A stretch of DNA of 64,000 nt, taken from positions 45,600 to 109,599 of the IMG/VR virus record IMGVR_UViG_3300020594_000001, one strand, 5' to 3'. The first letter of the stretch is position 1. Each line of letters opens with the position of its first letter. Origin of the DNA: a virus (Duplodnaviria; Heunggongvirae; Uroviricota; Caudoviricetes). Shown one piece after another: positions 2,584 to 63,728 of the stretch. A program made the position numbers and the translations under genes. The notes under the pieces are model-generated. The model did not search any database. It worked only from the letters and a program-made list of their open reading frames with translations, and was not told the origin of the DNA.

Positions 2584-2906
2584 GAGGCCACCCCTTGGTG
2601 AAAAGGCATCGGGGCGATAAACCCAATCTGGAACCCCACCCGCTCAGCATGCGTTAACGCAGCCCACTGCTGCGGACTCATCTGGAACGCTTCGCAAATT
2701 GCATCGACCAGATCAGCGTCACCCAACAACCGCCCGAACTCCAGGCAGATCAAATCACCCTCCACCAGCTTGCTGGGCCAGTAATCGTGCTTACGATCAA
2801 ATGCTAGGAGCTCTTCAACCGCTCGGTCATACGCGGGGTTGTTCAAGTCATAGTCTTTGGTGAAGGCGAGAACCCTCTGCGCGATCACCTTTCGTTGTGC
2901 TTGCAT
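2571..2906 (-). CDS. hypothetical protein, 111 aa
   Basis: Start at 2906 is preceded by the conserved leader ...CACACAAGGTAAACATCATG. Confidence 0.55.
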   Translation of the reverse strand: MQAQRKVIAQRVLAFTKDYDLNNPAYDRAVEELLAFDRKHDYWPSKLVEGDLICLEFGRLLGDADLVDAICEAFQMSPQQWAALTHAERVGFQIGFIAPMPFHQGVASCKT

Positions 2907-2966
2907 GATGTTTACCTTGTGTGCTGTCGTTATGAGGTGTCATCATGAGCGCCCAAAAGAGGCACT

Positions 2967-3097
2967 TTTCCCACTTTCGTTTCTTTACCCCCGGTTTTTC
3001 GGATACTTTTCTAAAAAATTTCCCACTTGAAGCGCCTAAATCCGATAGATATTGGGCGATCTTTCCCACTTTGCTAGGCGCGCAAAACCCACTTTTG
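2967..3097. repeat. four direct iteron-like repeats TTTCCCACTT(T/G)
   Basis: Copies at 2967, 3018, 3062 and 3086 lie inside a 1.1-kb non-coding region. Confidence 0.6.
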
Positions 3098-3278
3098 GGG
3101 CTAAAACGGGGTTTTCGGGGTGTAGGCGGGTCAAACCGAGGGGGGTTCGATTGCCTAAAGAGGGAGATAGGCCCGAGCACCAGGACAGGACGCCCAGCCC
3201 GTTAGGCAGTCTCTGGCGGTTGATACGCCTACACCTCTATACACGCGCAAAGGGGGCCTAATCGCTTACCAGGGATCT

Positions 3279-3377
3279 GGCCGAACACGTAGGCTGGGGG
3301 TGAGCCGAACATGAAAAAGGCTTATGGGCATTGGGGAAGGCGAGCCTTTCTATATACGGAAAGCTGGCCGAACACGA
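3279..3377. repeat. cluster B of GCCGAACA(C/T)G repeats, 3 copies
   Basis: GGCCGAACACG (3279), GAGCCGAACATG (3302) and GGCCGAACACG (3367). Confidence 0.55.
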
Positions 3378-4000
3378 AAGGAACTGGGCGCTAGGACGGC
3401 TTAGGCACGTTGACGTTTAAAGGCTTAGGAAGCGGAAAAATCTCTTATACGTCCGGTTATTGTTGTCATACGTCTGGTCCTATATCCGGTTATGTGGTTG
3501 CTTGTATATTCGGTTTATATGGTGTGTTTAAGCATCCTCTGTTTGTGTTGTTGATGAACCTCTCTATGGATTCCTTTCTCTATTCATTAACCGTCTCTTC
3601 TTTCTATCTGTTGTAGCTGTCGATATTGTTGTTGCTGGTCTTATCCGCACACTTTCTCTTTTCGTCATACGTTCTTTTTGGATTCGAGCTCGCCTGGTCA
3701 GTCTCTGTCTTCTCTTTCCCTCACGTCGAAATAGATTCGTTTTGCTTTGGTTGCTTTGCTTGAATCGCGCTTGCTTGCGCTTTTGGCGATCGACCTATGC
3801 CAGGGTATCGGTTTTGCTGAAAATCGCTTGTAGCGCGTTTAATCGGTTCTCTCGATACAATCGCGGGCGAAATTGCGGGGTTGCCTATGCTTGAAAAACC
3901 CCTTTAAAATCAATAGCTTACAATACGAGATTAACCCTTGCAAAAAAGACCCTTAAAATCAATGGGTTACGAGGGGTTTTCCTATAGGCTTTGCGGGCAT

Positions 4001-4030
4001 AAAAAAGACCCCACCTGTGAGGGGGTGGGG
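4001..4030 (-). terminator. rho-independent terminator for minus-strand transcription
   Basis: On the minus strand the hairpin CCCCACCC..GGGTGGGG is followed by TCTTTTTTAT. It closes the tmRNA-containing transcription unit. Confidence 0.6.
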
Positions 4031-4227
4031 CCGTGAAGAGTCTGTTTCCAGACTTAGGTAAACACCGATGCAAAGCGGTGTCTGGGTGAGGATAGCACAG
4101 CAGCTTTCGCTATAGGCTGATGGTTGCGCAAGGGCCTAGGGTTCCCTTCCGTTGTTCGGTCCCGCATAGTAGCCCGGGCGGGTTTGCAGCCCTTTGTCCC
4201 GGCGTTGCTTTCTGCTAAGAGGCAACC

Positions 4228-4314
4228 ATCATGTCTGCCAACGAGAAGGAATCGAACCTTCGCCTTCGACCTCGCGAGTCGTTGCTCTACCAAACGCGCA
4301 TCGTTGGCAGACAT
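4228..4314 (-). other. tRNA-like element, a degenerate cloverleaf with anticodon GCG (Arg-like), enclosed in a 16-bp inverted repeat
   Basis: On the minus strand: acceptor GCCAACG/CGTTGGC, D-arm GCGC-GTTTGGTA-GAGC, anticodon loop TCGCGAG, T-arm GAAGG-TTCGATT-CCTTC. Defects are C at position 33, one extra nt before the 3' acceptor strand, and no encoded CCA. The stem is extended by ATCATGTCT/AGACATGAT. Confidence 0.4.
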
Positions 4315-4595
4315 GATGATCCTGGTCTTTCTCTTCGCCAGGGCAGAAGCTGATGGTGTCGCACGCTCTACATCAGGGAGGGCCTACGCCATCACCCGGT
4401 ATCGGTCCAACCGCCAGCGGTCGGTGCGAAACTCCGTCAGGTTTTCACCTTCACCATCATGAAAAAGAGCGGTCCTCACCCTTGCACGTCTGGCGCACGT
4501 CCGGCCTTTCGTAATACTCGCCAGCAGGGTTGATACGGTTTTGAACGGGCCGCGCTCTTTCATGATGGCCCCGGGCATTCCCGGGGAACCTTTAC

Positions 4596-4925
4596 TTAGC
4601 AGTATTGTTCCTCTAATTCTTCAGCGAGTTTGGTTGCGCCTTCCAGCAGCGGTTCAAGCGAAACGTGATAATCAGCGATGACGTCGAAGCCGTCGTTGCC
4701 GTAAACGAGATAGACGGTAGCGCCGGGGTCTTTGTCATCTTGGTGGACGATCAAGGTGTCCTCGCAGGTGAGTCCGATGGCCGCCATAATGTCAGCGACA
4801 TTGCGTGAACGCTTGAGCGCGTATGCCTCGCCATCAAAGACCGATATGCTACGACCCGCAGCGATGACGTCTTGGGCGAGTTTTCGAACGATCTTGCGCT
4901 CGATTTGTTCGGTAGTCGGTGACAT
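4596..4925 (-). CDS. hypothetical protein, 109 aa
   Basis: ATG at 4923..4925; trimmed from ORF 4596..5111. Confidence 0.45.
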   Translation of the reverse strand: MSPTTEQIERKIVRKLAQDVIAAGRSISVFDGEAYALKRSRNVADIMAAIGLTCEDTLIVHQDDKDPGATVYLVYGNDGFDVIADYHVSLEPLLEGATKLAEELEEQYC

Positions 4926-4959
4926 GATTGTTTGCCCGTTGTTTGTTGATATGGCTCTA

Positions 4960-5220
4960 TCATGCGCCCGCAGATGAGGATGCGACATCGCGCAACAGCG
5001 CCTTGAATTGCTCTTCAGACAGAGGCTCTCCCGACAGCTCGCCCGGCTCAATGGTTGAATCCATGTAAGACCATCCGTTCCACCAGTCAGCGACATACCA
5101 TTTCGTTCCATCGCCGGGAACCGACCTGTCTAGCTTCACGAGCTCGCCATGCACGTTGCGGAAGATCATGCCCTCTTCGAGCTCGTATCGGCGCTCATAC
5201 CAGTCAATTTCCTTGCTCAT
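4960..5220 (-). CDS. hypothetical protein, 86 aa
   Basis: A strong AGGGGGAA Shine-Dalgarno lies immediately 3' of the tmRNA coding piece. Confidence 0.5.
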   Translation of the reverse strand: MSKEIDWYERRYELEEGMIFRNVHGELVKLDRSVPGDGTKWYVADWWNGWSYMDSTIEPGELSGEPLSEEQFKALLRDVASSSAGA

Positions 5221-5221
5221 G

Positions 5222-5662
5222 TGCTTCCCCCTACGTTGCGCTTCAATGATGGCCCCCGGCTTCTGTTGCCACCTGCCGGGGAAGGCCGTTACCGCTTAAG
5301 CAGCGGCACGGATGTAGTCGTCGTTGGCGTCTACAAGTTTTGCTTGGTTTATACGGCTCCGCTTGCCGAGTAGTTCGATTCGCTTCAGTATGTCTGTCGA
5401 AACCATGTCAGCCCCATCAGGAATTCCCTCGCCACTTTCGTCGGAGCAACCCGACTACTTGCTTCACTCACCAGTCCGTCGTTATGCGCACTTACGATAG
5501 GACTCGTGGGCCGTCTTGCCCCTCTATGGGCAGTCACGGAGGGAATTCCTGGTGGAGCTGGCGGGAGTCGAACCCGCGTCCAGACACCATTCACTGCACG
5601 TCTCGCGCCCCCCTCCGGCTAGAGGAAGTCGCACACTACCATCATCGAAGCGGGCCGGGCTT
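5222..5662 (-). ncRNA. ssrA: circularly permuted two-piece tmRNA gene: acceptor piece about 5550..5662, intervening hairpin 5416..5547, coding piece about 5222..5415
   Basis: The minus strand reads ...GGACGCGGGTTCGACTCCCGCCAGCTCCACCA (T-arm, acceptor 3' strand, CCA), ending at 5550. The tRNA-like 5' end GGGGCTGACATGGTTTCGACAG starts at 5415, after the CCA. A tag frame GCC AAC GAC GAC TAC ATC CGT GCC GCT GCT TAA (ANDDYIRAAA) lies at 5296..5328. A 14-bp complement links the coding-piece 3' end to the acceptor-piece 5' end. Confidence 0.7.
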
Positions 5663-5966
5663 GATACCGGCTTGTGCGTTATTTTGTTTTCGGGGTGGCC
5701 TGCCCCTCAAGCTAAAGGCTCGTATGCCTACGACACCACTGCACACAGTCTCGCGTTTCCTTCAACGCCGCCGCTTCGATGATGGTCCTGGTGCTTGACG
5801 TTTTCACAAGAGGCGCACCAGGAATACCCCTTGCTATGCTTCGGTTACATGACGGTCTCCGGTTCGTTCATTGTTCACCTTAAAGTTGTGTTGTCAGTAT
5901 AGGTATTGTGCGCTTTAGGTCTCGGAACGAACGCTCTTTACAACCACGGTGATCTGATTCTTCACG

Positions 5967-6200
5967 TCAATACCCCTGTTCAAGTGCCCATGCCTCAATG
6001 GCGTCGATGGTTTGTTGATCGACCTTGTGCCATTCACCCCGGACGTTTTCCAGCCCGCCCTCTCCCATCAGCAGCTCCAGGCTCCCGGTGTATTCACCAT
6101 GAACACCCTTCTTGCTGATAAAGCAGGATGGCCCGAACTCTTCGTTGCCCGCCTCGAATTCGACGGTAAAACCGTCAATCACAGTTTTTGCGTCCTTCAT
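5967..6200 (-). CDS. hypothetical protein, 77 aa
   Basis: ATG at 6198..6200 with a GGGGGAAAG Shine-Dalgarno. Confidence 0.5.
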   Translation of the reverse strand: MKDAKTVIDGFTVEFEAGNEEFGPSCFISKKGVHGEYTGSLELLMGEGGLENVRGEWHKVDQQTIDAIEAWALEQGY

Positions 6201-9112: not shown

Positions 9113-9315
9113 GACTTCTCGCCCTTGACCACGTCCATGACATCGAAGATCAAACCGTTCTTGACTGCGGCAGAACCAGGGTTGTTCTCGCACAAGTTGA
9201 TGATGTAGGCAACGCCGCCCATGTCGGGAATTCTGGCGTTGTGGCAGAGGGTGTCGTAGATTCCGAGCTCTTTGGCACGCTTGATGATTCTGTCGATACG
9301 CTTAACTTTCTGCAT
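9109..9315 (-). CDS. hypothetical protein, 68 aa
   Basis: Start at 9315 is preceded by the leader ...GACAAGCAAGGTAAACATCATG. Confidence 0.5.
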   Translation of the reverse strand: MQKVKRIDRIIKRAKELGIYDTLCHNARIPDMGGVAYIINLCENNPGSAAVKNGLIFDVMDVVKGEKS

Positions 9316-9376
9316 GATGTTTACCTTGCTTGTCGTTCTTGATGGCTCCCATTGTGCTCACGGGAAACAGGCGTGC

Positions 9377-12660: not shown

Positions 12661-13190
12661 GCAGCCACCTCTTCGCCCCTGCGCAGCAGGTTTTCCAGAC
12701 CCTCTTTGACCTGCCGCGAAGTCATGCGAAAAATCGCACCATCAGGCAGTCGCGAAGCCATCCAGCCCCGCCTTGCCAGGTCACGGGTCAGTCGATAGCT
12801 GTGCGGGCCGTAGGGCACGACGAGACCTGCCTTTGCAGGGCTGTCTTTGAGCTTCCGCTTCCATTCGTGGTGGGCAATAACTCGCTTGCGCCATTCGGCA
12901 GACGAGTCGTTCTGTGCGGGGTGCGCCGCGTTCAGAAGTGACATCGGGCAGTCGTAGTAATGCGGGTGCGCGGTCTCGTTCACGCCTTTGTAGCCCCAGC
13001 CATGACGCCCGCCCGAGCTCATGAGACACAGCCCGATCAGGCGGGTGCCGTCAGGACGGCTGAAAAGCTGCCAGAGGTGGTTGCCGACTACAGAGTGCTT
13101 GATAAGCGTGTAGCCTGGTGAGAGCGAAGTGTTCAGATACGCGACAAGTTGCGCCTTTGTGCGCCATTCGCTGCAGAACGTGGTGCCCAT
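12657..13190 (-). CDS. hypothetical protein, 177 aa
   Basis: Start at 13190 is preceded by the leader GCGCATCATTACACCATCGATAACGACACAAGGTAAACATCATG. Confidence 0.55.
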   Translation of the reverse strand: MGTTFCSEWRTKAQLVAYLNTSLSPGYTLIKHSVVGNHLWQLFSRPDGTRLIGLCLMSSGGRHGWGYKGVNETAHPHYYDCPMSLLNAAHPAQNDSSAEWRKRVIAHHEWKRKLKDSPAKAGLVVPYGPHSYRLTRDLARRGWMASRLPDGAIFRMTSRQVKEGLENLLRRGEEVAA

Positions 13191-13195
13191 GATGT

Positions 13196-13465
13196 TTACC
13201 TTGTGTCGTTATCGATGGTGTAATGATGCGCGTTCGATGCAGGCGCTACTGGCCCAGCGAACGGCACCACCTTCTCGTTCAAGCGCTGCCACGCGATGCG
13301 AGCGTTGCCTATCGCGAGCACAGGCGGTATCACTACCGCTTTGAGCAATCGAATCCCCATGCTGTCCAGAACCTGTTCCATCGCCTCTTGCAGGGTGTTG
13401 CCCTGCACCTGCGCGACCCCACGGTCTTGGAATCCGAATAAATACGTGTTCATGACGCCCCTCAT
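13196..13465 (-). CDS. hypothetical protein, 89 aa
   Basis: Minus-strand ORF. Confidence 0.4.
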   Translation of the reverse strand: MRGVMNTYLFGFQDRGVAQVQGNTLQEAMEQVLDSMGIRLLKAVVIPPVLAIGNARIAWQRLNEKVVPFAGPVAPASNAHHYTIDNDTR

Positions 13466-16453: not shown

Positions 16454-16678
16454 TTAGCAAGCGTAGAACTCTGGAAGGCCGTAGCCGCGATCTTGCGAAA
16501 GCTTGTGTTCAGCCCATGATTGCAGGACGGGCATGGAGAAACTGCCGTCCAGGGCGCGAATTTCGATGACGTCGCGTCCTGCCCAGTCTTTGCTGGGTGG
16601 CATTGCGACCGCATCGAGCTCACCACGCACGGTGACAAGGATGCAGCGACGCGCGGGGTCAATTTGTTGTGTTTGCAT
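16454..16678 (-). CDS. hypothetical protein, 74 aa
   Basis: Start at 16678 is preceded by the leader GGGCGCATCATAACCATACCGACATCAGAACAGGTAAACATCATG. Confidence 0.5.
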   Translation of the reverse strand: MQTQQIDPARRCILVTVRGELDAVAMPPSKDWAGRDVIEIRALDGSFSMPVLQSWAEHKLSQDRGYGLPEFYAC

Positions 16679-16741
16679 GATGTTTACCTGTTCTGATGTC
16701 GGTATGGTTATGATGCGCCCGTCGGTGAGGCGTTTTGCGCT

Positions 16742-28167: not shown

Positions 28168-29367
28168 CTATGCCCCCTTCACGCAAAGAATCTGCTTCAG
28201 GACGTGAACCACTTCAACCAGGTCGCGCTGGTTTTCCATCACTACGTCGATGTCTTTGTAGCTACTGGGAATTTCATCCAGAACCGCATCATCTTTTCGG
28301 CACTCGACGCCACGCGTTTGCTCTTCGAGGTCAGCGACGCTGAAAAGCTTGCGTGCTTTACTGCGCGACATCTTCCGCCCTGCCCCGTGTGAACATGAGC
28401 AATACGAATCCAGATTGCCCTTTCCACGCACGATATAGCTCTTCTGGCCCATCGAACCAGGAATGATGCCCAGATCACCCTCACGAGCTCGAATCGCACC
28501 CTTGCGAGTCACCCAAAGGTTCTTGCCGAAGTGGTTTTCGCGTGCCACGTAGTTGTGATGGCAGTTGATCGCTTCCTGGGTAATGGTGAACTCAACGGGA
28601 ATGTGTCGTCGCAGGGCTGCGATTACCGCTACCATCATTTCAGCCCGATTTTCCAAGGCGTATGCTTGGGCCCACTCAACTGCCTCCATGTAATCGTTGA
28701 AGTCGTCGGTGTCTTCAGGAAGGTATGCCAAATCGCCATCAGGCAAGTGAATAAAGAACCGCTCCATCGTGCGCTTAGCCTTTGCGATGTAGTGGTTACC
28801 GATCATGTTGCCGATACCACGCGAGCCCGAGTGCAGCATGATCCAGACATCGTCATTCTCGTCAATGCAGAGCTCAACGAAGTGGTTGCCGCTACCCAGA
28901 GTGCCAAGCTGCGCGGTAGCTTTCTTCGCAGCTTTGTGGGCGCTTTCGCTGCCCCGCTCGCCGAAAACTTCCTGAACACTTGGAGGGACATCAAGTATCG
29001 TGGCTGGCCCCCTGCCCTGCTTGTGCGCGCCACCGGCACCCAGCGGCACGTCGCGCTCAATCTGATGACGAATGCTCACCAGTGAATCGGGCAGATCAGA
29101 CGCCTTCAGAGACAGGCGCACAGCGTTCATGCCGCAGCCGATGTCAACACCGACAGCGGCGGGGATAATTGCCTTATCAGTGGCAATAACCGAACCAATC
29201 GTCGAGCCCTTCCCTGCATGAACATCGGGCATCAACGCAACGCCATTGCCAGCGATGAACGGGAGCCGCGCGAGGTTCTTGGCTTGGTTCAGCGCTTCTT
29301 CCTCGATATCGTCGGTCCATACTTTAATGGGGCGAGGCAGGGTCTCGTCGTGAATCACTTTCATCAA
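28168..29367 (-). CDS. rtcB: RtcB-family RNA 3'-phosphate ligase
   Basis: Family motifs MPDVHAGKGSTIGSV, CHHNYV and SHGAGR; 399 aa. Confidence 0.8.
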   Translation of the reverse strand: MMKVIHDETLPRPIKVWTDDIEEEALNQAKNLARLPFIAGNGVALMPDVHAGKGSTIGSVIATDKAIIPAAVGVDIGCGMNAVRLSLKASDLPDSLVSIRHQIERDVPLGAGGAHKQGRGPATILDVPPSVQEVFGERGSESAHKAAKKATAQLGTLGSGNHFVELCIDENDDVWIMLHSGSRGIGNMIGNHYIAKAKRTMERFFIHLPDGDLAYLPEDTDDFNDYMEAVEWAQAYALENRAEMMVAVIAALRRHIPVEFTITQEAINCHHNYVARENHFGKNLWVTRKGAIRAREGDLGIIPGSMGQKSYIVRGKGNLDSYCSCSHGAGRKMSRSKARKLFSVADLEEQTRGVECRKDDAVLDEIPSSYKDIDVVMENQRDLVEVVHVLKQILCVKGA

Positions 29368-45491: not shown

Positions 45492-45820
45492 GTCTCAACA
45501 TCGAACATACCTATGTGACAATCGGATTTTGGAATGTTCAGCTTCTGTGCCAGTAGCTCATATGCCCGGCTGCGGGTGAATGCGCCCGTCTTCCAGAGTG
45601 GGTCGAACGCAGCATGCGCCCGCATCTTTGCACTTCGCAGAGCCCCGTTTGCCAGTCGACCCAAGGGCTTATCAGTGCCTTTATGGCAACCGACATACGC
45701 ATCGCACGGCGCGCACAGATAGAAAAGTTGCTCGAACAAGTCTGGACGATGCGGGTATATCTTGCGCCCCGTCACAAGGCTGCTTGGCCCCCTGCAGTAT
45801 GAGCACTGAACAATTCTCAT
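45437..45820 (-). CDS. zinc-finger protein, 127 aa
   Basis: Start trimmed to MRIVQCSYC. Cys clusters CSYC ... CAPC. Confidence 0.4.
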   Translation of the reverse strand: MRIVQCSYCRGPSSLVTGRKIYPHRPDLFEQLFYLCAPCDAYVGCHKGTDKPLGRLANGALRSAKMRAHAAFDPLWKTGAFTRSRAYELLAQKLNIPKSDCHIGMFDVETCRQVAMVAKTIWGSPLE

Positions 45821-52766: not shown

Positions 52767-55700
52767 TCAGTTGGTTAGTTCTGCGATTTGGGCGCAGGTT
52801 TGTTGAAGCAGCTTGATCTTGCTCGCGTCGAAGTAGATGGTGCTCGGATTCATTCCAAAGACGATGCTGGCGTCCAAGGCGGGATCGAAGATTGTCTTGC
52901 CCACTAACTCTGTGGGGTTACCCTTGGTCGACGGGGCAAAGTAGCGAATGGCATTACCACCCATGGCGACAATGACGGCGGGCTTGAGAATTTCAATTTC
53001 CCGAGCCAGATACTTTGAGCAACCATTGATTTGCTCTGTCGAAAGCACCTTCTGCTCTTTTGGTTTTACTGACTTCACCAGGGAAGTGTAGTAACCGTCG
53101 TTAGGACTGAGACCCGCGTCTTTGAGCGCCGCGCGAACCGCGTCACCAACGTCGCCCGACAGCATTTTTCCGTCTTGCGCTTCCTTCCAGTTGGGGGAGT
53201 CGAACACCATCATGAAGCGTGGCTTCTTACCCATGCTGGGCGTGGGGTGCTGCCCGCCAGACAACGAGCAACCGTCGCAAACACGCATTTCTCCGATGAT
53301 TTCTGCAATCTTCAGCTGAGCGATACGGTCGGCATTGAGCCCACGGTCCGCCTTCACTGCGTCAACGGTGTATCCCGGCATGAGTTCCAGGCGGTCTTTC
53401 AGTCGGTCAGGGTGCAGCGCAGGCAAGCCGTCGCCAAGCGATGCAAAAGCGCCCACCTTGCGTAGCACCTCTTTGTGGCGCACGTTGATTTTGCCCGCGA
53501 CGGTGCTCTTGGCGACCTCTTCAAACTGATCGAACGACTCGAAGGGTTTACCCTGGGCAGCGCGCACCTCAAGAATCTTCGCAGCCACGTTTACGCTGAT
53601 ACCCTTGATGGCCTGGAATGGCGCATAGAGTGTGCGTTCACCATCGATTGTGATTGTGTCGGACGACTTATTGATATCCGGTGGCAGCACGTCGATCCCG
53701 TGCGTCTTGGCGTCCATCATGATGGGCGCAAGCTTGTCGTCATCGTCGACCACCGACATAGACGCCGCATAGAACTCAGCTGGGTAATAGACCTTGAGCC
53801 ACATCATCTGATAGGAAATCAAGGTGTATGCGAACGCGTGGGACTTATTAAAGCAATACGCGGCAAAGCCCTCGATGTCGTTCCAAAGTGCCTGCGCATC
53901 AAGCTCACTCATGCCACTGGCGACTGCGCCATCGATGAACTGTTGGCCCATCGTTGCCATCTTGTCCTTGTCTTTCTTACCGATCGCTTTACGAAGCCCG
54001 TCAGCTTCTGCGCCGGTAAACCCGCAAAGGTCGACCGCGATTCGGGATACCTGCTCTTGGTAGACCGTAACCCCGAATGTTTCGCGCAGCGCGGGTTCGA
54101 CCAGCGGACTGATGTAGCTGGGCAGTTTCTTGCCTTGCTTAACTGCGATGTATTGATCCATCAGCCCCGCGTCGATTGGACCCGGACGAAACAGTGCTGT
54201 CGCGGCGGCGATATCCTCGAACGTCAGAGGCTCTAACACCGCCAAATCTTTCAGCAGCTTGCGCATGCCCGAGCCAGAAAACTGAAACACGCCCACCGTA
54301 TCGCCTCGACCAAATGCTTCAAGCACCTTACGATCGTCCAGCGGCAGCGCCAGCAGGTTGATCGTCTTATGATGGCGCTCTTTGATATAGCGACGGGCAT
54401 GCGCAAGCACGTCGAGCGTAGACAGACCCAGAATGTCCATCTTGACGAGGCCGAAGTCTTCAACCACGCTTTTATCCCAGTTCACCACCGGCAGCGCACC
54501 CTCTTGACGCTGCATCACCACCGCGCGGGTGTTGATGTCATCGTGCGCGACAATGACGCCCGCTGCGTGCTGCCCCAGGTTACGCATGTTCCCTTCGAGC
54601 GTCGTCGCATGGTTCCATATGACGGGATGCTCAGCCTTGAACTTTGCAATATCTGGCACGCTCGCCGCAGACTCTTCGAGCGGAAGCGAAACCCCGTGCT
54701 CCTTCTCCATTTGCTTGGAACACGAATATTCGTAGGGCTTCAGACCATGCACACGGGAGACGTCCCGAAGTGACGAAGCGGAGCCCAGGGTCGAATAGTT
54801 CGAAATGCCCGCGACTTTGGCGCGACCAAACCTGCCCACGATATACTCGACGACTTCGCCTCGTCGTGAGCTCATGAAGTCCATGTCCACGTCAGGCAGG
54901 TCGATACGGTCGGGATTGATGAAGCGTTCGAACAGAAGGCCAAACCGAATCGGGTCTAAGTCTGTAATGCCAAGCAGGTATGACACCAATGAGCCCGCAG
55001 CTGAACCGCGACCAGGGCCAACGATGACGTCTTGCGCTTTTGACCAACCGACAATCTCTTGAACAAGCAAGAAGTAGTTCGAGAACCCGAGGCGTCGCAG
55101 CACGCCAAGCTCATACGCCAAGCGCTCCTTATACCTCTGCATATCTTCGGGCGCGGGCTTGTGGCCCAGCACTTCACTACCAAAGCGTTTTACCCAGCCT
55201 TCTTTGCAGCGCTCTAGCAACGTCTTGAATGCGTCTTCAGCCATATGGGGCAGCGACGCAGGCATCTTCTCGAAGCGATAGAAGCACTGCTCGACAATCT
55301 GATCCATGGACGCGAAACTTTGCTTAACTTCATCGCCATTCATTCCGATACGGCGGGCGGTCGAAATCATTCGCGTCGCGAGCTCTTTGGGGTCATCGAA
55401 GCACCAATCCCGGGTAGCTGGCACAGGCAGCTGGGGAGAGCCCATGGTGTATGTTCCAGAGCTTGTGATGGCCCTGAGAACATCATGGCTTGCAGCTTGG
55501 TCGCTTGATGCATAAAAGCGCGGGTAGCCCGCAATCAGCGGTAGCCCACGACTGCGGGCGCATGCCAGCGCTTTGCGGTTGAGCGTGTCGAACAACATGC
55601 TCTGAACCGGCGTAATCTCGATATAGAGCGGGTGTTTCTCCGACAGCGCTTGGACGATTTCGCCTGCCTTGGGGTGATGAAACAGGCAGAATAGGTCACC

Positions 55701-56135
55701 CGTTGTGACAATCACGTCTTCAAGCGCCAGCACCTGTGAAAGCTCGGTGCGGGCATGGTAGTAAAACTGGTCAGCGCTGTTTGCCTTAGACAGCAAGCCC
55801 ATCAGCGACCGCAAACCCGTCTCGGTCTTTACGTAAACCTTGATTTGAAAAGAGTGGTTTCGAACCTCAACCGCGCCCTCTTTCTTCTTTTGCTGAGCGG
55901 TGGGCGGGCGATAAGTTGCGCTGTCATATACACGAAGCGTGCACCCAAGAACAGGGGTAATGTCGTGCTTCTTGCAAGCAGACGAGAATGCGGGCAAGCC
56001 CGATATCGTCATGGTGTCTGTGAGCGCGATCGATTTGAAGCCCAACTCTTTGGCGCGCTCAACCATCGGCACCACCTGCAAGATTGACTCCCCGACAGAG
56101 TGATCAGACCGAACAGACAGTGCATGTTGTAACAC
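52767..56135 (-). CDS. dnaE: DNA polymerase III alpha subunit (DnaE-type)
   Basis: N-terminal PHP domain and the palm region GPGRGSAAGSLVSYLLGITDLDPIRFGLLFERFINPDR; 1122 aa. Confidence 0.85.
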   Translation of the reverse strand: MLQHALSVRSDHSVGESILQVVPMVERAKELGFKSIALTDTMTISGLPAFSSACKKHDITPVLGCTLRVYDSATYRPPTAQQKKKEGAVEVRNHSFQIKVYVKTETGLRSLMGLLSKANSADQFYYHARTELSQVLALEDVIVTTGDLFCLFHHPKAGEIVQALSEKHPLYIEITPVQSMLFDTLNRKALACARSRGLPLIAGYPRFYASSDQAASHDVLRAITSSGTYTMGSPQLPVPATRDWCFDDPKELATRMISTARRIGMNGDEVKQSFASMDQIVEQCFYRFEKMPASLPHMAEDAFKTLLERCKEGWVKRFGSEVLGHKPAPEDMQRYKERLAYELGVLRRLGFSNYFLLVQEIVGWSKAQDVIVGPGRGSAAGSLVSYLLGITDLDPIRFGLLFERFINPDRIDLPDVDMDFMSSRRGEVVEYIVGRFGRAKVAGISNYSTLGSASSLRDVSRVHGLKPYEYSCSKQMEKEHGVSLPLEESAASVPDIAKFKAEHPVIWNHATTLEGNMRNLGQHAAGVIVAHDDINTRAVVMQRQEGALPVVNWDKSVVEDFGLVKMDILGLSTLDVLAHARRYIKERHHKTINLLALPLDDRKVLEAFGRGDTVGVFQFSGSGMRKLLKDLAVLEPLTFEDIAAATALFRPGPIDAGLMDQYIAVKQGKKLPSYISPLVEPALRETFGVTVYQEQVSRIAVDLCGFTGAEADGLRKAIGKKDKDKMATMGQQFIDGAVASGMSELDAQALWNDIEGFAAYCFNKSHAFAYTLISYQMMWLKVYYPAEFYAASMSVVDDDDKLAPIMMDAKTHGIDVLPPDINKSSDTITIDGERTLYAPFQAIKGISVNVAAKILEVRAAQGKPFESFDQFEEVAKSTVAGKINVRHKEVLRKVGAFASLGDGLPALHPDRLKDRLELMPGYTVDAVKADRGLNADRIAQLKIAEIIGEMRVCDGCSLSGGQHPTPSMGKKPRFMMVFDSPNWKEAQDGKMLSGDVGDAVRAALKDAGLSPNDGYYTSLVKSVKPKEQKVLSTEQINGCSKYLAREIEILKPAVIVAMGGNAIRYFAPSTKGNPTELVGKTIFDPALDASIVFGMNPSTIYFDASKIKLLQQTCAQIAELTN

Positions 56136-56145
56136 CTATAACCCC

Positions 56146-56772
56146 TTATGATTCGTTGTGGTAATACAGCTTTGTAGTATTGCTATCGATGCGAGGATTG
56201 AGCGTCATCAAGCCCGCAGCGTCTTCGACGCCTATCCCAAGCTCTTTGAAAACGCGCCAGATCAATGACGCCTGGACCGACGCTGAGCTCGATGCCCAGC
56301 CTAGGGCAGATTGGAGCGCTGCCTTCGCTTGTGCCTTGGAAACAGGAACACGGTTGGACAGCAGCAGATACATCGTGCTGGCGGTGCGTTGGCTGTCATT
56401 TGGGAATGGGTTCTCGCCATTGGCAAGCGCCTGGGCAATGAAAGTCTCTTTCCTGAACATTGCCCGCATCATCTTGCCCACCGCTGCAGGAACGCTGTCG
56501 ATCAGCGCTTTCTGTGTGGGCGTCGGTGCCCAGCGCGCGCGGGTCGCCCGCTCGACTTTCACCTCAAGAGGTCTGGGCTGCGCAACGCGTTCGACCGGGT
56601 CATTAACCGCGACCATTGTGCTGAAGGTCAGAATGAGCTCTGGATCGCCAATCCTCGATAGGACGGTGCGAGACACCGACACACACGCATTTGCGCTGGC
56701 GCATGTGTTGCATTTGGGCGACCGCACGCTAAACACGCTGGGAATGCCAAAGCACCCCGGTTGCCTAAGCAT
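56146..56772 (-). CDS. hypothetical protein with N-terminal Cys cluster; candidate anti-sigma partner
   Basis: Cys cluster CFG...KCNTCASANAC. It overlaps the sigma factor stop by 8 nt, suggesting translational coupling. Confidence 0.3.
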   Translation of the reverse strand: MLRQPGCFGIPSVFSVRSPKCNTCASANACVSVSRTVLSRIGDPELILTFSTMVAVNDPVERVAQPRPLEVKVERATRARWAPTPTQKALIDSVPAAVGKMMRAMFRKETFIAQALANGENPFPNDSQRTASTMYLLLSNRVPVSKAQAKAALQSALGWASSSASVQASLIWRVFKELGIGVEDAAGLMTLNPRIDSNTTKLYYHNES

Positions 56773-57448
56773 GAATCTTCACCCCCAACACGGTGTCGAA
56801 CTCCTGCGCGATGCCGCGCATTTGCTCGCGGGAATAGCCTAGGTAACGCCCGATAAGACGAACCGACAGCTTTTCGCTCGGATTGCGACGCTTAGCGCCA
56901 CCCGCAATGTGCTTGTGAATGGCAGCGAGATATTCTTCGTGCGCGTCCATAACCGCCTGGGTCGGGGCCATGATTTCACGAATGATGCGCCGGGCCTCTG
57001 CCGATAGGCACCTAATTCGCTCTGAAATTTCGACGCTACGCACTGCCAACTGCTCGACGCTCAGCGTGGTGTCGGCCAGGTATTGCTCGGGGGAAAACTC
57101 GTCTTCGTCGTCCTCCCCAGACATTTCGCTAAAAAGCATCACCCCATGCAGGGCTCGCTCTTCGATGCGCTTGTTGACATAGCGGTTCACGTTGTTAAGC
57201 ACCGCCCGCCCCATGTAAGCGCTGAATGTGATGCCCAGGCCAGGCTTATAGGTGCGCAGTGCCTCAGCGTAAGAAAGACACGCCTCTTGGAACAAGTCTT
57301 CGTATTGAATGTTGGTCTTTGTCGCAAGAACCCGCGTGTGGATGGTCCTGGCGAGCTTGTGGATTAAGCCTTTCTGGGCTTCGAAGCTGGTGTCAAAACC
57401 ACGCCCCACCCCGGGGCGTGATCCTGATTGTTGAAGTTGAGTGCTCAT
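56765..57448 (-). CDS. sigma-70 family RNA polymerase sigma factor (regions 2 and 4)
   Basis: Region 2-like EDLFQEACLSYAEALRTYKPGLGITFSAYMGRAVLNNV and a C-terminal HTH LSVRLIGRYLGYSREQMRGIAQ. Confidence 0.5.
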   Translation of the reverse strand: MSTQLQQSGSRPGVGRGFDTSFEAQKGLIHKLARTIHTRVLATKTNIQYEDLFQEACLSYAEALRTYKPGLGITFSAYMGRAVLNNVNRYVNKRIEERALHGVMLFSEMSGEDDEDEFSPEQYLADTTLSVEQLAVRSVEISERIRCLSAEARRIIREIMAPTQAVMDAHEEYLAAIHKHIAGGAKRRNPSEKLSVRLIGRYLGYSREQMRGIAQEFDTVLGVKIHA

Positions 57449-62118: not shown

Positions 62119-62412
62119 ATGAGCCCTACCGAAATTGTTCTGAAGCAGTTCCCCAATCGTGTTTCTTTGTCTGTGGCAGAAGCGGGCGCGGCCCTGGGCT
62201 ACGCTCGCCAAACCACCTACAACCTGAAAGCGAAAGGGAAATTTCCCGTCAGGATCAGCTTCGCGGGCAAGACTCCGATCGTCCATCTGCACGACCTCAT
62301 CAGCTTCCTAGAGGGCTTTCCCGCTTCGAACGATTCCAACTTCACCCCAGCACCCAAGAAGAAAGGGCGTCCCTCGAAAGCGGACGCCCTTCGCAAAGCA
62401 GGGGTGATCTAA
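62119..62412 (+). CDS. AlpA/Xis-family excisionase or DNA-binding protein
   Basis: LSVAEAGAALGYARQTTYNLKAKGKFP is a MerR-like winged HTH of the AlpA type. It overlaps the int stop. Confidence 0.6.
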   Translation: MSPTEIVLKQFPNRVSLSVAEAGAALGYARQTTYNLKAKGKFPVRISFAGKTPIVHLHDLISFLEGFPASNDSNFTPAPKKKGRPSKADALRKAGVI

Positions 62413-63506
62413 GCGACTTTCGTTGCTTCGCTGCGGTTGGCGGCGACTCGCTCCGCCATCTTCTGAGCCAAGAATTTGGCGTTCAAATGAGTGTATCGCC
62501 TCAGCTGACGGTAGTCACGGTGCCCAGTAACTGCCGCTGCCTCCACTAAGCTCATACCCAAGTCTTCGAAAAGTCTGCTCGTCGCTTCATGGCGCGCGTC
62601 ATGCAGACGCAAATCTTTGAATAGTTGTGGGTCGGGGGCGATGCCCTGCTCCAGACACTCTTTCTCATAGATTTCTCGGGCACGCTTTCGCGCACGACCA
62701 AATGCCTGGGTAAGCGAGTCAGCTGCCACACCAAAAACCCTTCCTTCCTTGCGATCCCCGATAACTTCGCGTAGCACTTCTGCAACACCGGGCAGGATCG
62801 GAATCGTTCGATCATCGCCATTCTTGGTGTCGGGCAAAAACACTGTCGCGTCTCGTAGGTTAACGTGCGGGATTTCCATTTCAGCAGCTTCACCTCGGCG
62901 CATCGCGCTATTAACCGCCACATAGAGAAACGCTTTGAGCGCTGGTGAATTGCTTGCCTCGACGATCTTTGTATATTCATAGTCCGCCTCGTTCATTTCA
63001 CAAACGAAACGCCTGGTTCGCCCCTTTGGGGCGGCGGGGCGTTTAAGACCTTCTATGGGATTCTTGAGGCCCTTGAAGTCGTTGCATTCCGATATGGCGA
63101 AGTTATAGAACGACGAAATCATCCCTAACTCGCGAATGACTGTCCCTTTGGACACCGTCAGCAGTCGAGTGTTTCGGTATTCGCGAAAATCGGACAATCC
63201 ACAATCGAGCAACTCTTTGCGCGCCAAGGGCAATCTCTTCAGCCGCAAGATGAAGTTGAGCTCCTGCTTTGCACCCTTTTTGGACGGCACGGCCTTCTCC
63301 TGGCAATAGTCCAAAAGGTCGTAGAGCCGCTTTCCCTTAAGGTGCCGCATGTCGACAAAGGTCTTTTCCTTAATCGCCTTCTCAGTCTGTTCCGCCCATT
63401 CTTCTGCTTCGCGGCGGGTGGGGAAGGTTTCTGATAACGACGGGGTGCCCTTAACCCGCACCTTTGCCCTGAACTGGTATGGGCCACGCTCTTCAATGAC
63501 AGCCAT
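62409..63506 (-). CDS. int: tyrosine-type phage integrase
   Basis: C-terminal catalytic motifs LHDARHEA and TGHRDYRQLRRYTHL (R..H..R..Y); adjacent to a tRNA. Confidence 0.85.
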   Translation of the reverse strand: MAVIEERGPYQFRAKVRVKGTPSLSETFPTRREAEEWAEQTEKAIKEKTFVDMRHLKGKRLYDLLDYCQEKAVPSKKGAKQELNFILRLKRLPLARKELLDCGLSDFREYRNTRLLTVSKGTVIRELGMISSFYNFAISECNDFKGLKNPIEGLKRPAAPKGRTRRFVCEMNEADYEYTKIVEASNSPALKAFLYVAVNSAMRRGEAAEMEIPHVNLRDATVFLPDTKNGDDRTIPILPGVAEVLREVIGDRKEGRVFGVAADSLTQAFGRARKRAREIYEKECLEQGIAPDPQLFKDLRLHDARHEATSRLFEDLGMSLVEAAAVTGHRDYRQLRRYTHLNAKFLAQKMAERVAANRSEATKVA

Positions 63507-63590
63507 AGCTCAATCTCCGATAAAAAAGTCTTCGCTTTGTTATAGGAGTCGCTGTCCCAAAAGTGTCCCAAATAATGTGCTAACTGGCTC

Positions 63591-63630
63591 TAAAAGCAAA
63601 AATGCACTTAGGGGAATTAACCCTAAGTGC
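63591..63630 (-). terminator. rho-independent terminator downstream of tRNA-Val
   Basis: On the minus strand the perfect 10-bp hairpin GCACTTAGGG-TTAATTC-CCCTAAGTGC is followed by ATTTTTGCTTTTA. Confidence 0.55.
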
Positions 63631-63652
63631 ATGATTTTGCGTAACTTCTAAG

Positions 63653-63728
63653 TGGTGGGTGCTACAGGGGTCGAACCTGTGACCTACGCCTTGTAAGGGC
63701 GCCGCTCTACCAACTGAGCTAAGCACCC
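63653..63728 (-). tRNA. tRNA-Val (anticodon TAC)
   Basis: Manual cloverleaf on the minus strand, GGGTGCTTAGCTCAGTTGGTAGAGCGGCGCCCTTACAAGGCGTAGGTCACAGGTTCGACCCCTGTAGCACCCACCA, with an encoded CCA. Confidence 0.85.

Follow-up and report, generated by a model that had tools for sequence, protein, structure and literature searches.

CCAUCA-stemmed elements around a permuted phage tmRNA form a family of possible excisable RNA linkers

What are the long inverted repeats doing that stand in the non-coding surroundings of the tmRNA gene of a tailed phage? The question is raised by a 64,000-nucleotide stretch of a Caudoviricetes virus (positions 45,600 to 109,599 of IMG/VR record IMGVR_UViG_3300020594_000001), here called the window, which is phage-like and carries nearly all of its genes on the minus strand. 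An earlier, sequence-only reading had noticed two hairpin units, had correctly placed both in the untranslated tail of the tmRNA transcription unit, and had offered a tRNA gene, a decoy or tRNA mimic, or a processing signal as explanations; among these, the processing signal and the tRNA mimic fit best. A third unit, absent from that reading, lies on the other side of the tmRNA. We propose that units 0, 1 and 2 and the intervening segment of the tmRNA itself may belong to one family of RNA-level linkers that are excised by tRNA-type processing, and we give this reading a probability of about 0.45. The argument turns on the following features.

4223..4321, minus strand: unit 1, a 21-bp closing stem around a tRNA-like cloverleaf
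4237..4307, minus strand: tRNA-like core of unit 1 (Rfam RF00005, 36.6 bits)
4454..4568, minus strand: unit 2, CCAUCAUGAAAGAGCG...CGCUCUUUUUCAUGAUGG, with a stem of about 16-20 bp that holds a 2-nt bulge
5638..5786, minus strand: unit 0, a 16-bp perfect stem (ACCAUCAUCGAAGCGG) around 117 nt
5239..5652, minus strand: permuted (two-piece) tmRNA gene, including an outer closing helix of 5239-5252 with 5639-5652
5409..5560, minus strand: intervening segment of the tmRNA, with a 22-nt, 91% hairpin CAGCUCCACCAGGAAUUCCCUC / GAGGGAAUUCCUGAUGGGGCUG (inverted repeat I1)
4321..4342, minus strand: small hairpin CCUGG-(12 nt)-CCAGG, then A, then UCA, immediately 5' of unit 1
4569..4586, minus strand: small hairpin CCCCGGG-AAUG-CCCGGGG, with a CCA directly after it that forms the first three nucleotides of unit 2

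Only 13 inverted repeats of at least 14 bp within 250 nt occur in the whole 64 kb, and the three units marked by the word CCATCAT rank among the top five. The word itself is 23-fold enriched in 4040-5800, where six of its 15 copies in the window are found. In unit 1, the perfect 16-bp repeat described from the sequence alone is real and turns out to be longer: arms of 18 nt (4227-4244 and 4301-4318) are 100% complementary around 56 enclosed nucleotides, and on the minus-strand RNA the stem reaches 21 bp through U.G, A-U and G.U pairs. The unit as a whole has a folding z-score of -5.6. Unit 2 likewise has an imperfect repeat, which had been put at 17 bp; its arms measure 22 nt (4454-4475 and 4547-4568), are 86% complementary and enclose 71 nt. 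The interior of unit 2 forms two hairpins (z-score -3.2) and gives no tRNA signal. The kinship of the two units proposed earlier holds, with little primary sequence shared between them.

The tmRNA at 5296-5612 (minus strand) matches Rfam RF04321 with 106 bits, and ARAGORN reads its tag as ANDDYIRAAA. Its intervening segment begins at the CCA of the acceptor piece, which is the same design as that of the units. None of the three units is the intervening segment: unit 0 precedes the tmRNA, and units 1 and 2 follow it at a distance of 0.7-1.0 kb on the 3' side. The end of unit 0 coincides exactly with the 5' start of the tmRNA (GG^UAGUGUG, where ^ marks the boundary here and below), and the stem of unit 0 competes with the closing helix of the tmRNA (5239-5252 with 5639-5652; I8) for the same 3' arm. 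At the other end, the 3' hairpin of the tmRNA (5253-5282) is followed by G-CCA^UCAUUG. Inside unit 0 we found a D-like hairpin (GCGUU-GAAGGA-AACGC), a variable centre, and a T-like hairpin (GCCGG-UAUCAAGC-CCGGC) that abuts the 3' arm.

Megablast and blastn searches of the window against 50,697 phage records detected no similarity outside the tmRNA, for which they returned Bordetella phage PHB04 and Achromobacter phages Axy11 and JWDelta. Exact look-ups recovered the window's phage as 100% identical copies in three sequencing runs, so no close variant is at hand for comparison. A long hairpin ending in ..AUGG^U(A/G)GU stands at five of five other phage tmRNAs (PHB04, Axy11 and three loci of our comparison, L005, L039 and L134), with stem sequences that are unrelated to one another. 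In PHB04, a CCATCATCGAAGCGG hairpin lies directly 3' of the tmRNA and shares 25 identical nucleotides with the copy on the 5' side in the window. In L134, the unit is itself the intervening segment of a permuted tmRNA (85 bits), laid out as ...CUCCACCA^UCAGCACAUUG...GGUUCGAAUCCUC-CAAUGUGCUGAUGAU^GGGGUAG, and the intervening segment of L039 is constructed in the same way. By eye, both segments (L039 2700-2830 and L134 183-275) hold tRNA-type arms with a GGUUCGAAUCC T loop, joined in L039 by a D-arm-like stretch. No tRNA model match is reported for either segment, and the elements appear in none of the annotations seen. A 20-mer of the tmRNA tag found 32 loci in JGI metagenomes, among which only L039 and L042 are real tmRNAs. 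Separately, 1.2 kb upstream of the tmRNA of Axy11 (L002, 3340-4600) contain several degenerate tRNA-like pieces, and the annotated tRNA-Phe of this phage scores 37 bits only and is not called by ARAGORN.

Because the unit of L134, like the segment of L039, is the intervening segment of a permuted tmRNA, the conserved words can be assigned: CCAUCA is a CCA 3' end followed by a UCA trailer, and UGAUGG is a leader followed by the first G residues. The sequence-only reading had instead proposed a shared motif beginning CCATCATG and had extended CCATCAT to a gene leader. The conserved word is rather the CCA end and trailer behind a small hairpin, and the leader, CAAGGTAAACATCATG, has only CATCATG in common with the units. 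Outside tmRNAs, a small hairpin ending 0-1 nt before the CCA precedes 26 of 28 units, as opposed to 24% of 4,846 control CCA sites. One such junction reads GCCG-GAAAGA-CGGC-A-CCA^UCAUCG, that is, a minihelix-NCCA. The same context is present in the window at unit 0, at unit 2 and at the 3' hairpin of the tmRNA, and the hairpin at 4569..4586 is a direct repeat of the latter region (D2). Two other identities of the hairpin were considered. A sigma-70 promoter composed of the small hairpin and CATCAT fits some relatives by eye and does not fit the window, and the likeness of the GAAAGA-loop hairpins to lambda boxB/nut is mere resemblance.

How widespread are such units? A first scan looked for the word of the 3' arm in IMG/VR and in one genome per species and then applied a test for the partner arm. 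With unit 0 as the founding member, this recovered 12 more canonical units, located on viral contigs, on the chromosome of Achromobacter sp. M1 and in Orrella sp. An arm-independent scan for any CCATCA...TGATGG hairpin of at least 12 bp in 1.04 Mb identified 20 distinct units, several of which have quite different inner arms. In the same 1.04 Mb, 15 of 16 control hexamers gave 0-1 hairpins and one gave four. Altogether we count about 25 related units in phages and prophages of Alcaligenaceae, many of them neighbours of tRNA or tmRNA genes. Rfam 15 contains no matching family; this one is undescribed there, and its description would be new.

The canonical order begins with a 15-bp arm, two nucleotides and a D-like hairpin (GCGUG-GAUAGGA-CACGC and compensated variants), and continues through a hypervariable centre of 0-130 nt to a T-like hairpin (GCCGG-N8-CCGGC) and the abutting 3' arm. 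The T-like and D-like hairpins are clear in unit 0, in about nine of the 13 canonical members, in unit 1, and in L145, L135 and L064b (D-like by eye); they are not evident in unit 2. Three loci (L075, L087 and L085) contain non-coding arrays of units of 1.5-2 kb. The 3' arm of unit 2 and the sequence downstream of it (4443-4461) are 95% identical to an array in L087, and the stretch 4313-4349 on the 5' side of unit 1 resembles the flanks of canonical units in L085 (92% identity) and in L075 (86%). Two further observations concern the surroundings of the units and their arm words. The Burkholderiales-2 RNA motif (RF02917, 95-99 bits) occurs on the opposite strand, 1-2 kb from units, in L070 (7569-7642) and L081 (3574-3647), both Achromobacter-type prophages. 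A perfect palindrome, CCATCATGATGG, at 53710-53729 within the DNA polymerase III gene of the window equals two arm words with nothing between them and is probably due to chance.

Across 13 members, pairing holds in 98.8% of the alignment cells of the long stem and T-like hairpin, and seven pairs changed on both sides, a result reached by none of 500 shuffles. The MAFFT alignment misaligned the variable centre. One unit, L087b, combines the interior found in L054 and L095 with arms that are fully compensated. The strand of the unit is that of the nearest tRNA or tmRNA gene in seven of seven cases and that of the nearest Pfam-supported gene in about ten loci, and in the window the units and all their neighbours lie on the minus strand. 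The flanking genes are early-operon genes near CI-type repressors, RdgC or RecT/YqaJ, or else the units sit in the gap between terminase and portal genes. This gene-wise orientation, the asymmetric inner hairpins and the covariation point to an element that acts at the level of RNA.

Could the repeats work as DNA instead, either as miniature transposons with terminal inverted repeats (TIRs) or as hairpin recombination sites, resembling attC or the promoter-stem-loop cassettes of T4, that shuffle cassettes such as the tmRNA or a two-ORF block? Several observations would suit this. PHB04 carries the window's 5'-side unit on the 3' side of its tmRNA, units occur in varied genomic contexts, and two open reading frames (ORFs) of the window form a block (4596-5220) bracketed by the direct repeat of hairpin plus CCATCAT (D2). 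Moreover, the units resemble attC sites in combining conserved outer 6-7 bp with a variable inner stem and loop. However, the flanks show no target-site duplications, no two full-length copies are identical, hypervariable sequence fills the interiors, and the units strictly follow the orientation of the genes. The units are also asymmetric: the hairpin-CCA is confined to the 5' side and the T-like hairpin to the 3' arm. Their neighbourhood contains neither a transposase nor an integron integrase, and the sole integrase (62409-63506) is 58 kb off beside a tRNA-Val gene. GTTRRRY cores are absent, the cores of the units being CCATCA/TGATGG, and the stems of units 0 and 1 are perfect. We thus rejected both a miniature inverted-repeat (MITE/TIR) transposon and an integron attC site, and consider a DNA-level element quite improbable; the terminal repeats of a transposable element, which the sequence-only reading had named as the finding that would overturn it, are not what the flanks, interiors and orientation reveal. 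Since two phages carry the unit on different sides of the tmRNA and repeats enclose the two-ORF block, we suggest that the repeats also act as recombination joints, whatever their role in RNA.

The most tRNA-like interior is that of unit 1. With 36.6 bits, its core exceeds the gathering score of RF00005, which is 29 (E = 4.8e-4 for the window), bearing out the cloverleaf that had been drawn from the sequence, and it falls far below the 52-73 bits of genuine tRNAs in the window and its relatives. ARAGORN does not call it by default and reports a tRNA-Arg(gcg) at 4236-4308, with an 8-bp acceptor stem, when run at 95% of the default threshold. Infernal chooses another register (CCAACGA/TCGTTGG) in which position 9 is deleted, so the extra nucleotide previously noted before the 3' acceptor strand depends on the register.

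Unit 1 might accordingly be read as a functional phage tRNA-Arg(GCG), its long stem being only a precursor helix that RNase III, RNase P and exonucleases would remove and its CCA added later, which decodes CGC and CGU. The database score, the relaxed ARAGORN call, a canonical T arm (GAAGG-UUCGAUU-CCUUC, abutting the 3' arm), GG in the D loop (G18G19), a 7-nt anticodon loop (UCGCGAG, anticodon GCG, with C35) and A37 agree with this reading. So do the codon usage, in which 60% of the Arg codons of 23 window genes are CGC or CGT, and the tRNA clusters that adjoin the tmRNA in related phages. Against it stands a series of departures, two of which (C33 and the missing CCA) had already been recorded and are confirmed here. 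Position 33 is C instead of the near-universal U, position 14 is G instead of A, and position 20 is U instead of A; A20 is the main identity element for ArgRS in E. coli. Position 9 is missing, or else the acceptor has 8 bp, and there are mismatches in the D stem (G12.A23) and in the anticodon stem (A27.A43). Its score is below that of genuine tRNAs, and we found no homologue: an exact 21-mer of unit 1 had no match in IMG/VR, and blastn against phages returned generic tRNA fragments only. Finally, the 3' strand continues into a duplex of 18-21 bp. Because of C33, G14, U20, the missing position 9, the mismatches, the lack of CCA and the continuous 21-bp stem, a working tRNA-Arg is unlikely, and the tRNA gene proposed from the sequence alone is not supported. 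Rather than a decoding tRNA-Arg, unit 1 is most likely a mimic of a tRNA or else a tRNA that was captured and is decaying. As a working tRNA-Arg is unsupported, the idea that the phage gains translation capacity here is weak.

A targeted pattern scan for canonical T arms inside long CCAUCA stems found that unit 1 has counterparts. L145 has such a T arm within a 19-bp stem, a complete cloverleaf by eye and 28 bits; L135, L136, L140 and L142 also hold canonical T arms (24.5 bits), with a stem in L135 of about 14 bp (8 + 6 bp around a 2-nt mismatch). Unit 1 thus does not stand alone. A tRNA-like gene of L075 (5034-5157, 39.9 bits) starts within the 3' arm of a unit and overlaps its last 5 nt. The D arm of this gene is of class-II type, its anticodon loop carries an insertion of 53 nt, and in its acceptor, GAUGGUG/CACCAUC, the GAUGG comes from the arm of the unit. 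A tRNA-like start inside the 3' arm of a unit is also seen in L087, more weakly.

These genes bear on another explanation, in which the region is a decaying array of tRNA and tmRNA genes, unit 1 is a tRNA pseudogene that has lost its CCA, and the hairpins are functionless by-products of shared acceptor-type ends (CACCAUC-A ... U-GAUGGUG). The words CCAUCA and UGAUGG are indeed identical to the acceptor strands of the tRNA-like gene of L075, and degenerate tRNA-like pieces are numerous in Axy11, L075 and L087. Yet the stems run 8-13 bp past the acceptor words, perfectly paired and with compensatory changes between phages, an 18-bp perfect repeat such as that of unit 1 is not expected from decay, and the hairpin-N-CCA context has been kept in all but two of the 28 units. 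We rate decay as rather unlikely.

Could the region encode proteins? An 86-aa ORF (4054-4314) overlaps unit 1 and a 64-aa ORF (4384-4578) overlaps unit 2, each starting at the ATG in CATCATG, and the hairpins might then regulate translation. Both ORFs are called by gene callers, in units 1 and 2 an AGGA or GGGG precedes the ATG by 5 nt, and the ORF of unit 2 has a weakly positive codon score (+0.15 per codon). The ORF of unit 1, in contrast, has a negative score (-0.12 per codon), and in unit 0 the place of the ATG is taken by ATC. Neither ORF matches Pfam or PHROG, and neither has a real homologue among 5.8 billion proteins and 1.8 billion cluster representatives: the 86-aa ORF matched itself alone, and the 64-aa ORF matched only itself and Arg-rich low-complexity proteins. 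Given the negative codon score of the unit 1 ORF and the lack of real homologues, protein coding over the units is unlikely, and hairpins that serve the translation of these ORFs are very improbable indeed.

The words of the stems recur as short complementary segments beside the units, of which two are relevant here.

4118..4127, minus strand: GCAACCAUCA, a perfect 10-bp alternative partner for the 3' arm of unit 1 (4222-4231; inverted repeat I15)
4350-4357, minus strand: CACCAUCA, similar to GCAACCAUCA and able to pair with the 3' arm of unit 2 (direct repeat D10)

Such words (I8, I15 and D10) allow mutually exclusive pairings and raise the question of whether the units are precursors of regulatory or decoy RNAs, either tRNA-shaped, C4- or CI-like antisense RNAs, which RNase P would release and which would pair with the repeated words of their own transcript, or decoys of tRNAs that intercept the anticodon nucleases of the host. 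The early operons of temperate relatives contain units close to CI-type repressors, the region corresponding to the anticodon is hypervariable, the phage encodes RtcB (28168-29367), and phage regulatory RNAs are known substrates of RNase P (PMC4919922). However, we found no complementarity to targets beyond the shared words at the stem base, units also lie between terminase and portal genes, and there is no experimental hint of a regulatory or decoy role. The sequence-only reading had joined RtcB, the tmRNA and the tRNA-like unit into a translation-rescue function; the RtcB gene lies 24 kb away and shows no linkage to the units. We give little credence to the units as precursors of regulatory or decoy RNAs.

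Excisable processing linkers remain our favoured account, which joins an observed anatomy to a proposed mode of use. Each unit starts directly behind a small hairpin, 0-1 nt and CCA, a tRNA-style 3' end. It has a stem of 15-21 bp whose base, CCAUCA/UGAUGG, is the CCA end plus trailer paired with the leader. Many units are cloverleaf-like inside, with one hairpin 1-2 nt after the 5' arm and another against the 3' arm, and each ends at the start of the next RNA, be it a tmRNA piece, a tRNA-like gene or an mRNA. The region would be transcribed as a polycistronic phage RNA, from which host nucleases for tRNA and stable RNA could excise the linkers; candidates are RNase III acting on the long duplex, RNase P, and RNase Z or RNase E, with 3' trimming to CCA. 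Excision would leave a hairpin-protected CCA 3' end on the upstream RNA and set the 5' end of the downstream RNA, by the same route that removes the intervening segment from a permuted tmRNA precursor. Unit 1, with its interior, might serve as the recognition body of its linker.

Precedents exist for the single steps. Transcripts of permuted tmRNAs are cleaved by tRNA-processing enzymes (PMC11915505), and the known substrates of bacterial RNase P include tmRNA precursors, operon mRNAs and phage regulatory RNAs (PMC4919922). In the MALAT1/mascRNA system, pairing of leader and trailer extends the acceptor stem and promotes tRNA-type processing (PMC8457004). The same work supplies an objection, as a continuous extension of the acceptor stem that lacks a bulge at -1 hampers RNase P, at least the eukaryotic enzyme (PMC8457004). 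Because of this impairment, a double-strand-specific enzyme such as RNase III would have to act first, and with 15-21 bp the stems of the units are compatible in length with an RNase III substrate (about two turns of near-continuous double-stranded RNA).

Several further points weigh against processing linkers. Cleavage of the units is something that we purely infer. The canonical members were collected with a search on their arms, and the invariance of these arms is a consequence of that selection. Covariation in the stem comes from about four independent events, and the mismatches in the stems favour neither strand consistently. L145 and L135 reach only 24-28 bits as tRNAs, and the canonical members do not score as tRNAs, those of L064 giving no Rfam tRNA match even at E <= 10; for most members, 'tRNA-like' therefore describes a topology. 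In unit 1, the cloverleaf (-18.9 kcal/mol) is less stable by 3 kcal/mol than the minimum-free-energy (MFE) fold (-21.9 kcal/mol), and the 71-nt core folds no better than shuffled sequence (z-score -0.19). Unit 1 is also preceded by a hairpin and discriminator followed by UCA, a degenerate CCA, which gives its base (UCAUCA/UGAUGG) a U.G pair. We found no homologue of the core of unit 1 or of the interior of unit 2, and hence the folds of these two units have no covariation support of their own.

If the units are processing linkers, they would represent a counterpart in bacterial viruses of tRNA punctuation: CCA-initiated, tRNA-shaped spacers through which tmRNA, tRNA-like RNAs and stabilised mRNAs are released from long transcripts by the tRNA-processing enzymes of the host. 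This would account for the defined ends of two-piece phage tmRNAs that have no promoter of their own, and would tie the intervening segment of permuted tmRNAs to a wider family of free-standing elements. The signature of a small hairpin, 0-1 nt and CCAUCA ... UGAUGG could become a covariance model for annotating long 'non-coding' stretches of phage genomes. A bolder version, which we regard as doubtful, sees in Alcaligenaceae phages a modular grammar of RNA cassettes in which hairpin-NCCA ends are joined by tRNA-shaped, CCA-initiated linkers, so that mRNAs and stable RNAs such as tmRNA pieces, tRNAs and tRNA mimics can be strung together, excised and even circularly permuted by the tRNA-processing enzymes of the host alone. 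The occurrence of the same linker on either side of the tmRNA in different phages would then be the footprint of a tandem-duplication route to the permuted tmRNA, and the excised tRNA-shaped bodies with their hypervariable 'anticodon' domain might in addition act as decoys or regulators.

Around the units, the window contains the following further features.

4007..4032, minus strand: intrinsic terminator, a 9-bp stem and a T-run, which closes the transcription unit
4960-5220 (86 aa) and 4596-4925 (109 aa), minus strand: two small protein genes between the hairpin-CCA 3' of the tmRNA and that of unit 2
28168-29367: RtcB gene
56765-57448: phage-encoded sigma factor
elsewhere in the window: a fusion of DNA polymerase III alpha with a uracil-DNA glycosylase (PolIII-alpha/UDG), class I ribonucleotide reductase, SbcC/SbcD, RecA, a gp32-like protein, ThyX, a CobS/CobT-like pair, and an integrase beside tRNA-Val

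The terminator, which the sequence-only reading had taken as the close of the tmRNA unit, is borne out on the minus strand at 4032-4007, and terminator prediction for that strand gave no other strong one between there and the tmRNA. The two small protein genes have codon scores of +0.40 (4960-5220) and +0.42 (4596-4925) per codon. The 109-aa protein matches PHROG 4158 at 1e-13, and its homologues occur in unrelated contexts that have neither a tmRNA nor units; tblastn with the other flanking ORFs gave distant matches or none.

Several other sequences in the window deserve mention. The leader CAAGGTAAACATCATG(C) reads on the minus strand at translation starts and is conserved ahead of at least six early genes (plus-strand coordinates 102-128, 836-862, 2893-2919, 9302-9328, 13188-13206 and 16665-16691). 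Three of these sites share a longer similarity of 44-59 nt, and the leader looks like a shared cassette of ribosome-binding site and leader. A 20-nt motif that contains a palindrome, AGTAAGCACTTACTCCAAAT, occurs in nine intergenic copies across the replication module (13469, 32947, 35346, 47097, 51958, 58678, 58729, 61029 and 62075) and may be a promoter or operator for the phage sigma factor or for a regulator. Just downstream of the terminator, CCTTTAAAATCAATAGCTTAC is found twice (3901-3921 and 3950-3970), and these copies might be promoters or origin-type repeats. The segments 933-2234 and 2906-4000 amount to more than 2 kb that have no credible ORF and a lower GC content. The gene at 52767-56135 (minus strand) encodes DNA polymerase III alpha, with PHP, NTPase, finger and HhH parts, to which a domain of the uracil-DNA-glycosylase superfamily is fused at the C-terminus. 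At 62409-63728 (minus strand), the gene of the tyrosine integrase directly adjoins a full-length tRNA-Val(TAC) gene of 73 bits; this site could be a prophage end or attP region, and the window could come from an integrated or integrating phage.

Finally, we compared the units with known systems. YrlA, a bacterial Y RNA often linked to rtcBA, is a tRNA mimic bound by Ro60/Rsr, in which a tRNA-like domain is joined to a long stem of the 5' and 3' ends. A search of 3500-6000 for YrlA/Ro60, GOLLD/ROOL and other Rfam families gave nothing at E <= 10, and no TROVE/Ro60 protein was found among about 45 scanned ORFs of the window. The topology is opposite as well, as the closing stem of unit 1 continues the acceptor stem and that of YrlA continues the anticodon stem. 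A Y RNA identity is rejected on all three counts.

The stems cut by RNase III in rRNA operons and in the early mRNA of T7 are long, near-perfect duplexes, and their cleavage leaves hairpin-protected 3' ends. Like the units, they form from sequences that flank a stable RNA or lie between cistrons; unlike the units, known RNase III sites have no CCA-initiated base, no tRNA-like interior and no preceding minihelix-NCCA. The CI RNA of phage P4 is a small, tRNA-shaped regulatory RNA that tRNA-processing enzymes such as RNase P cut from an operon transcript on which complementary target words are repeated. So is the C4 RNA of P1/P7 (PMC4919922). The units differ from C4 and CI in having no sequence or Rfam similarity to them and no defined targets beyond the shared stem words.

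In mascRNA/MALAT1, MEN-beta, mitochondrial tRNA punctuation and plant t-elements, an embedded tRNA-like fold recruits RNase P or RNase Z and thereby makes the flanking ends (PMC8457004; PMC4919922). These systems are eukaryotic or organellar, whereas the units come from phages, and mascRNA, with its acceptor stem extended by leader-trailer pairing, needs the bulge at -1, whereas the stems of the units are continuous over 15-21 bp. The last comparison is with the intervening segment of permuted tmRNAs. Units 0, 1 and 2 differ from it in lying outside the tmRNA, behind a small hairpin and CCA instead of a T arm and acceptor strand, and some units, such as those in early operons and between terminase and portal genes, have no tmRNA near them. 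Like the units, the intervening segment starts at a CCA end, ends at G1 of the coding piece and forms a long hairpin that extends the acceptor stem, and it is known to be removed by tRNA-processing enzymes (PMC11915505).

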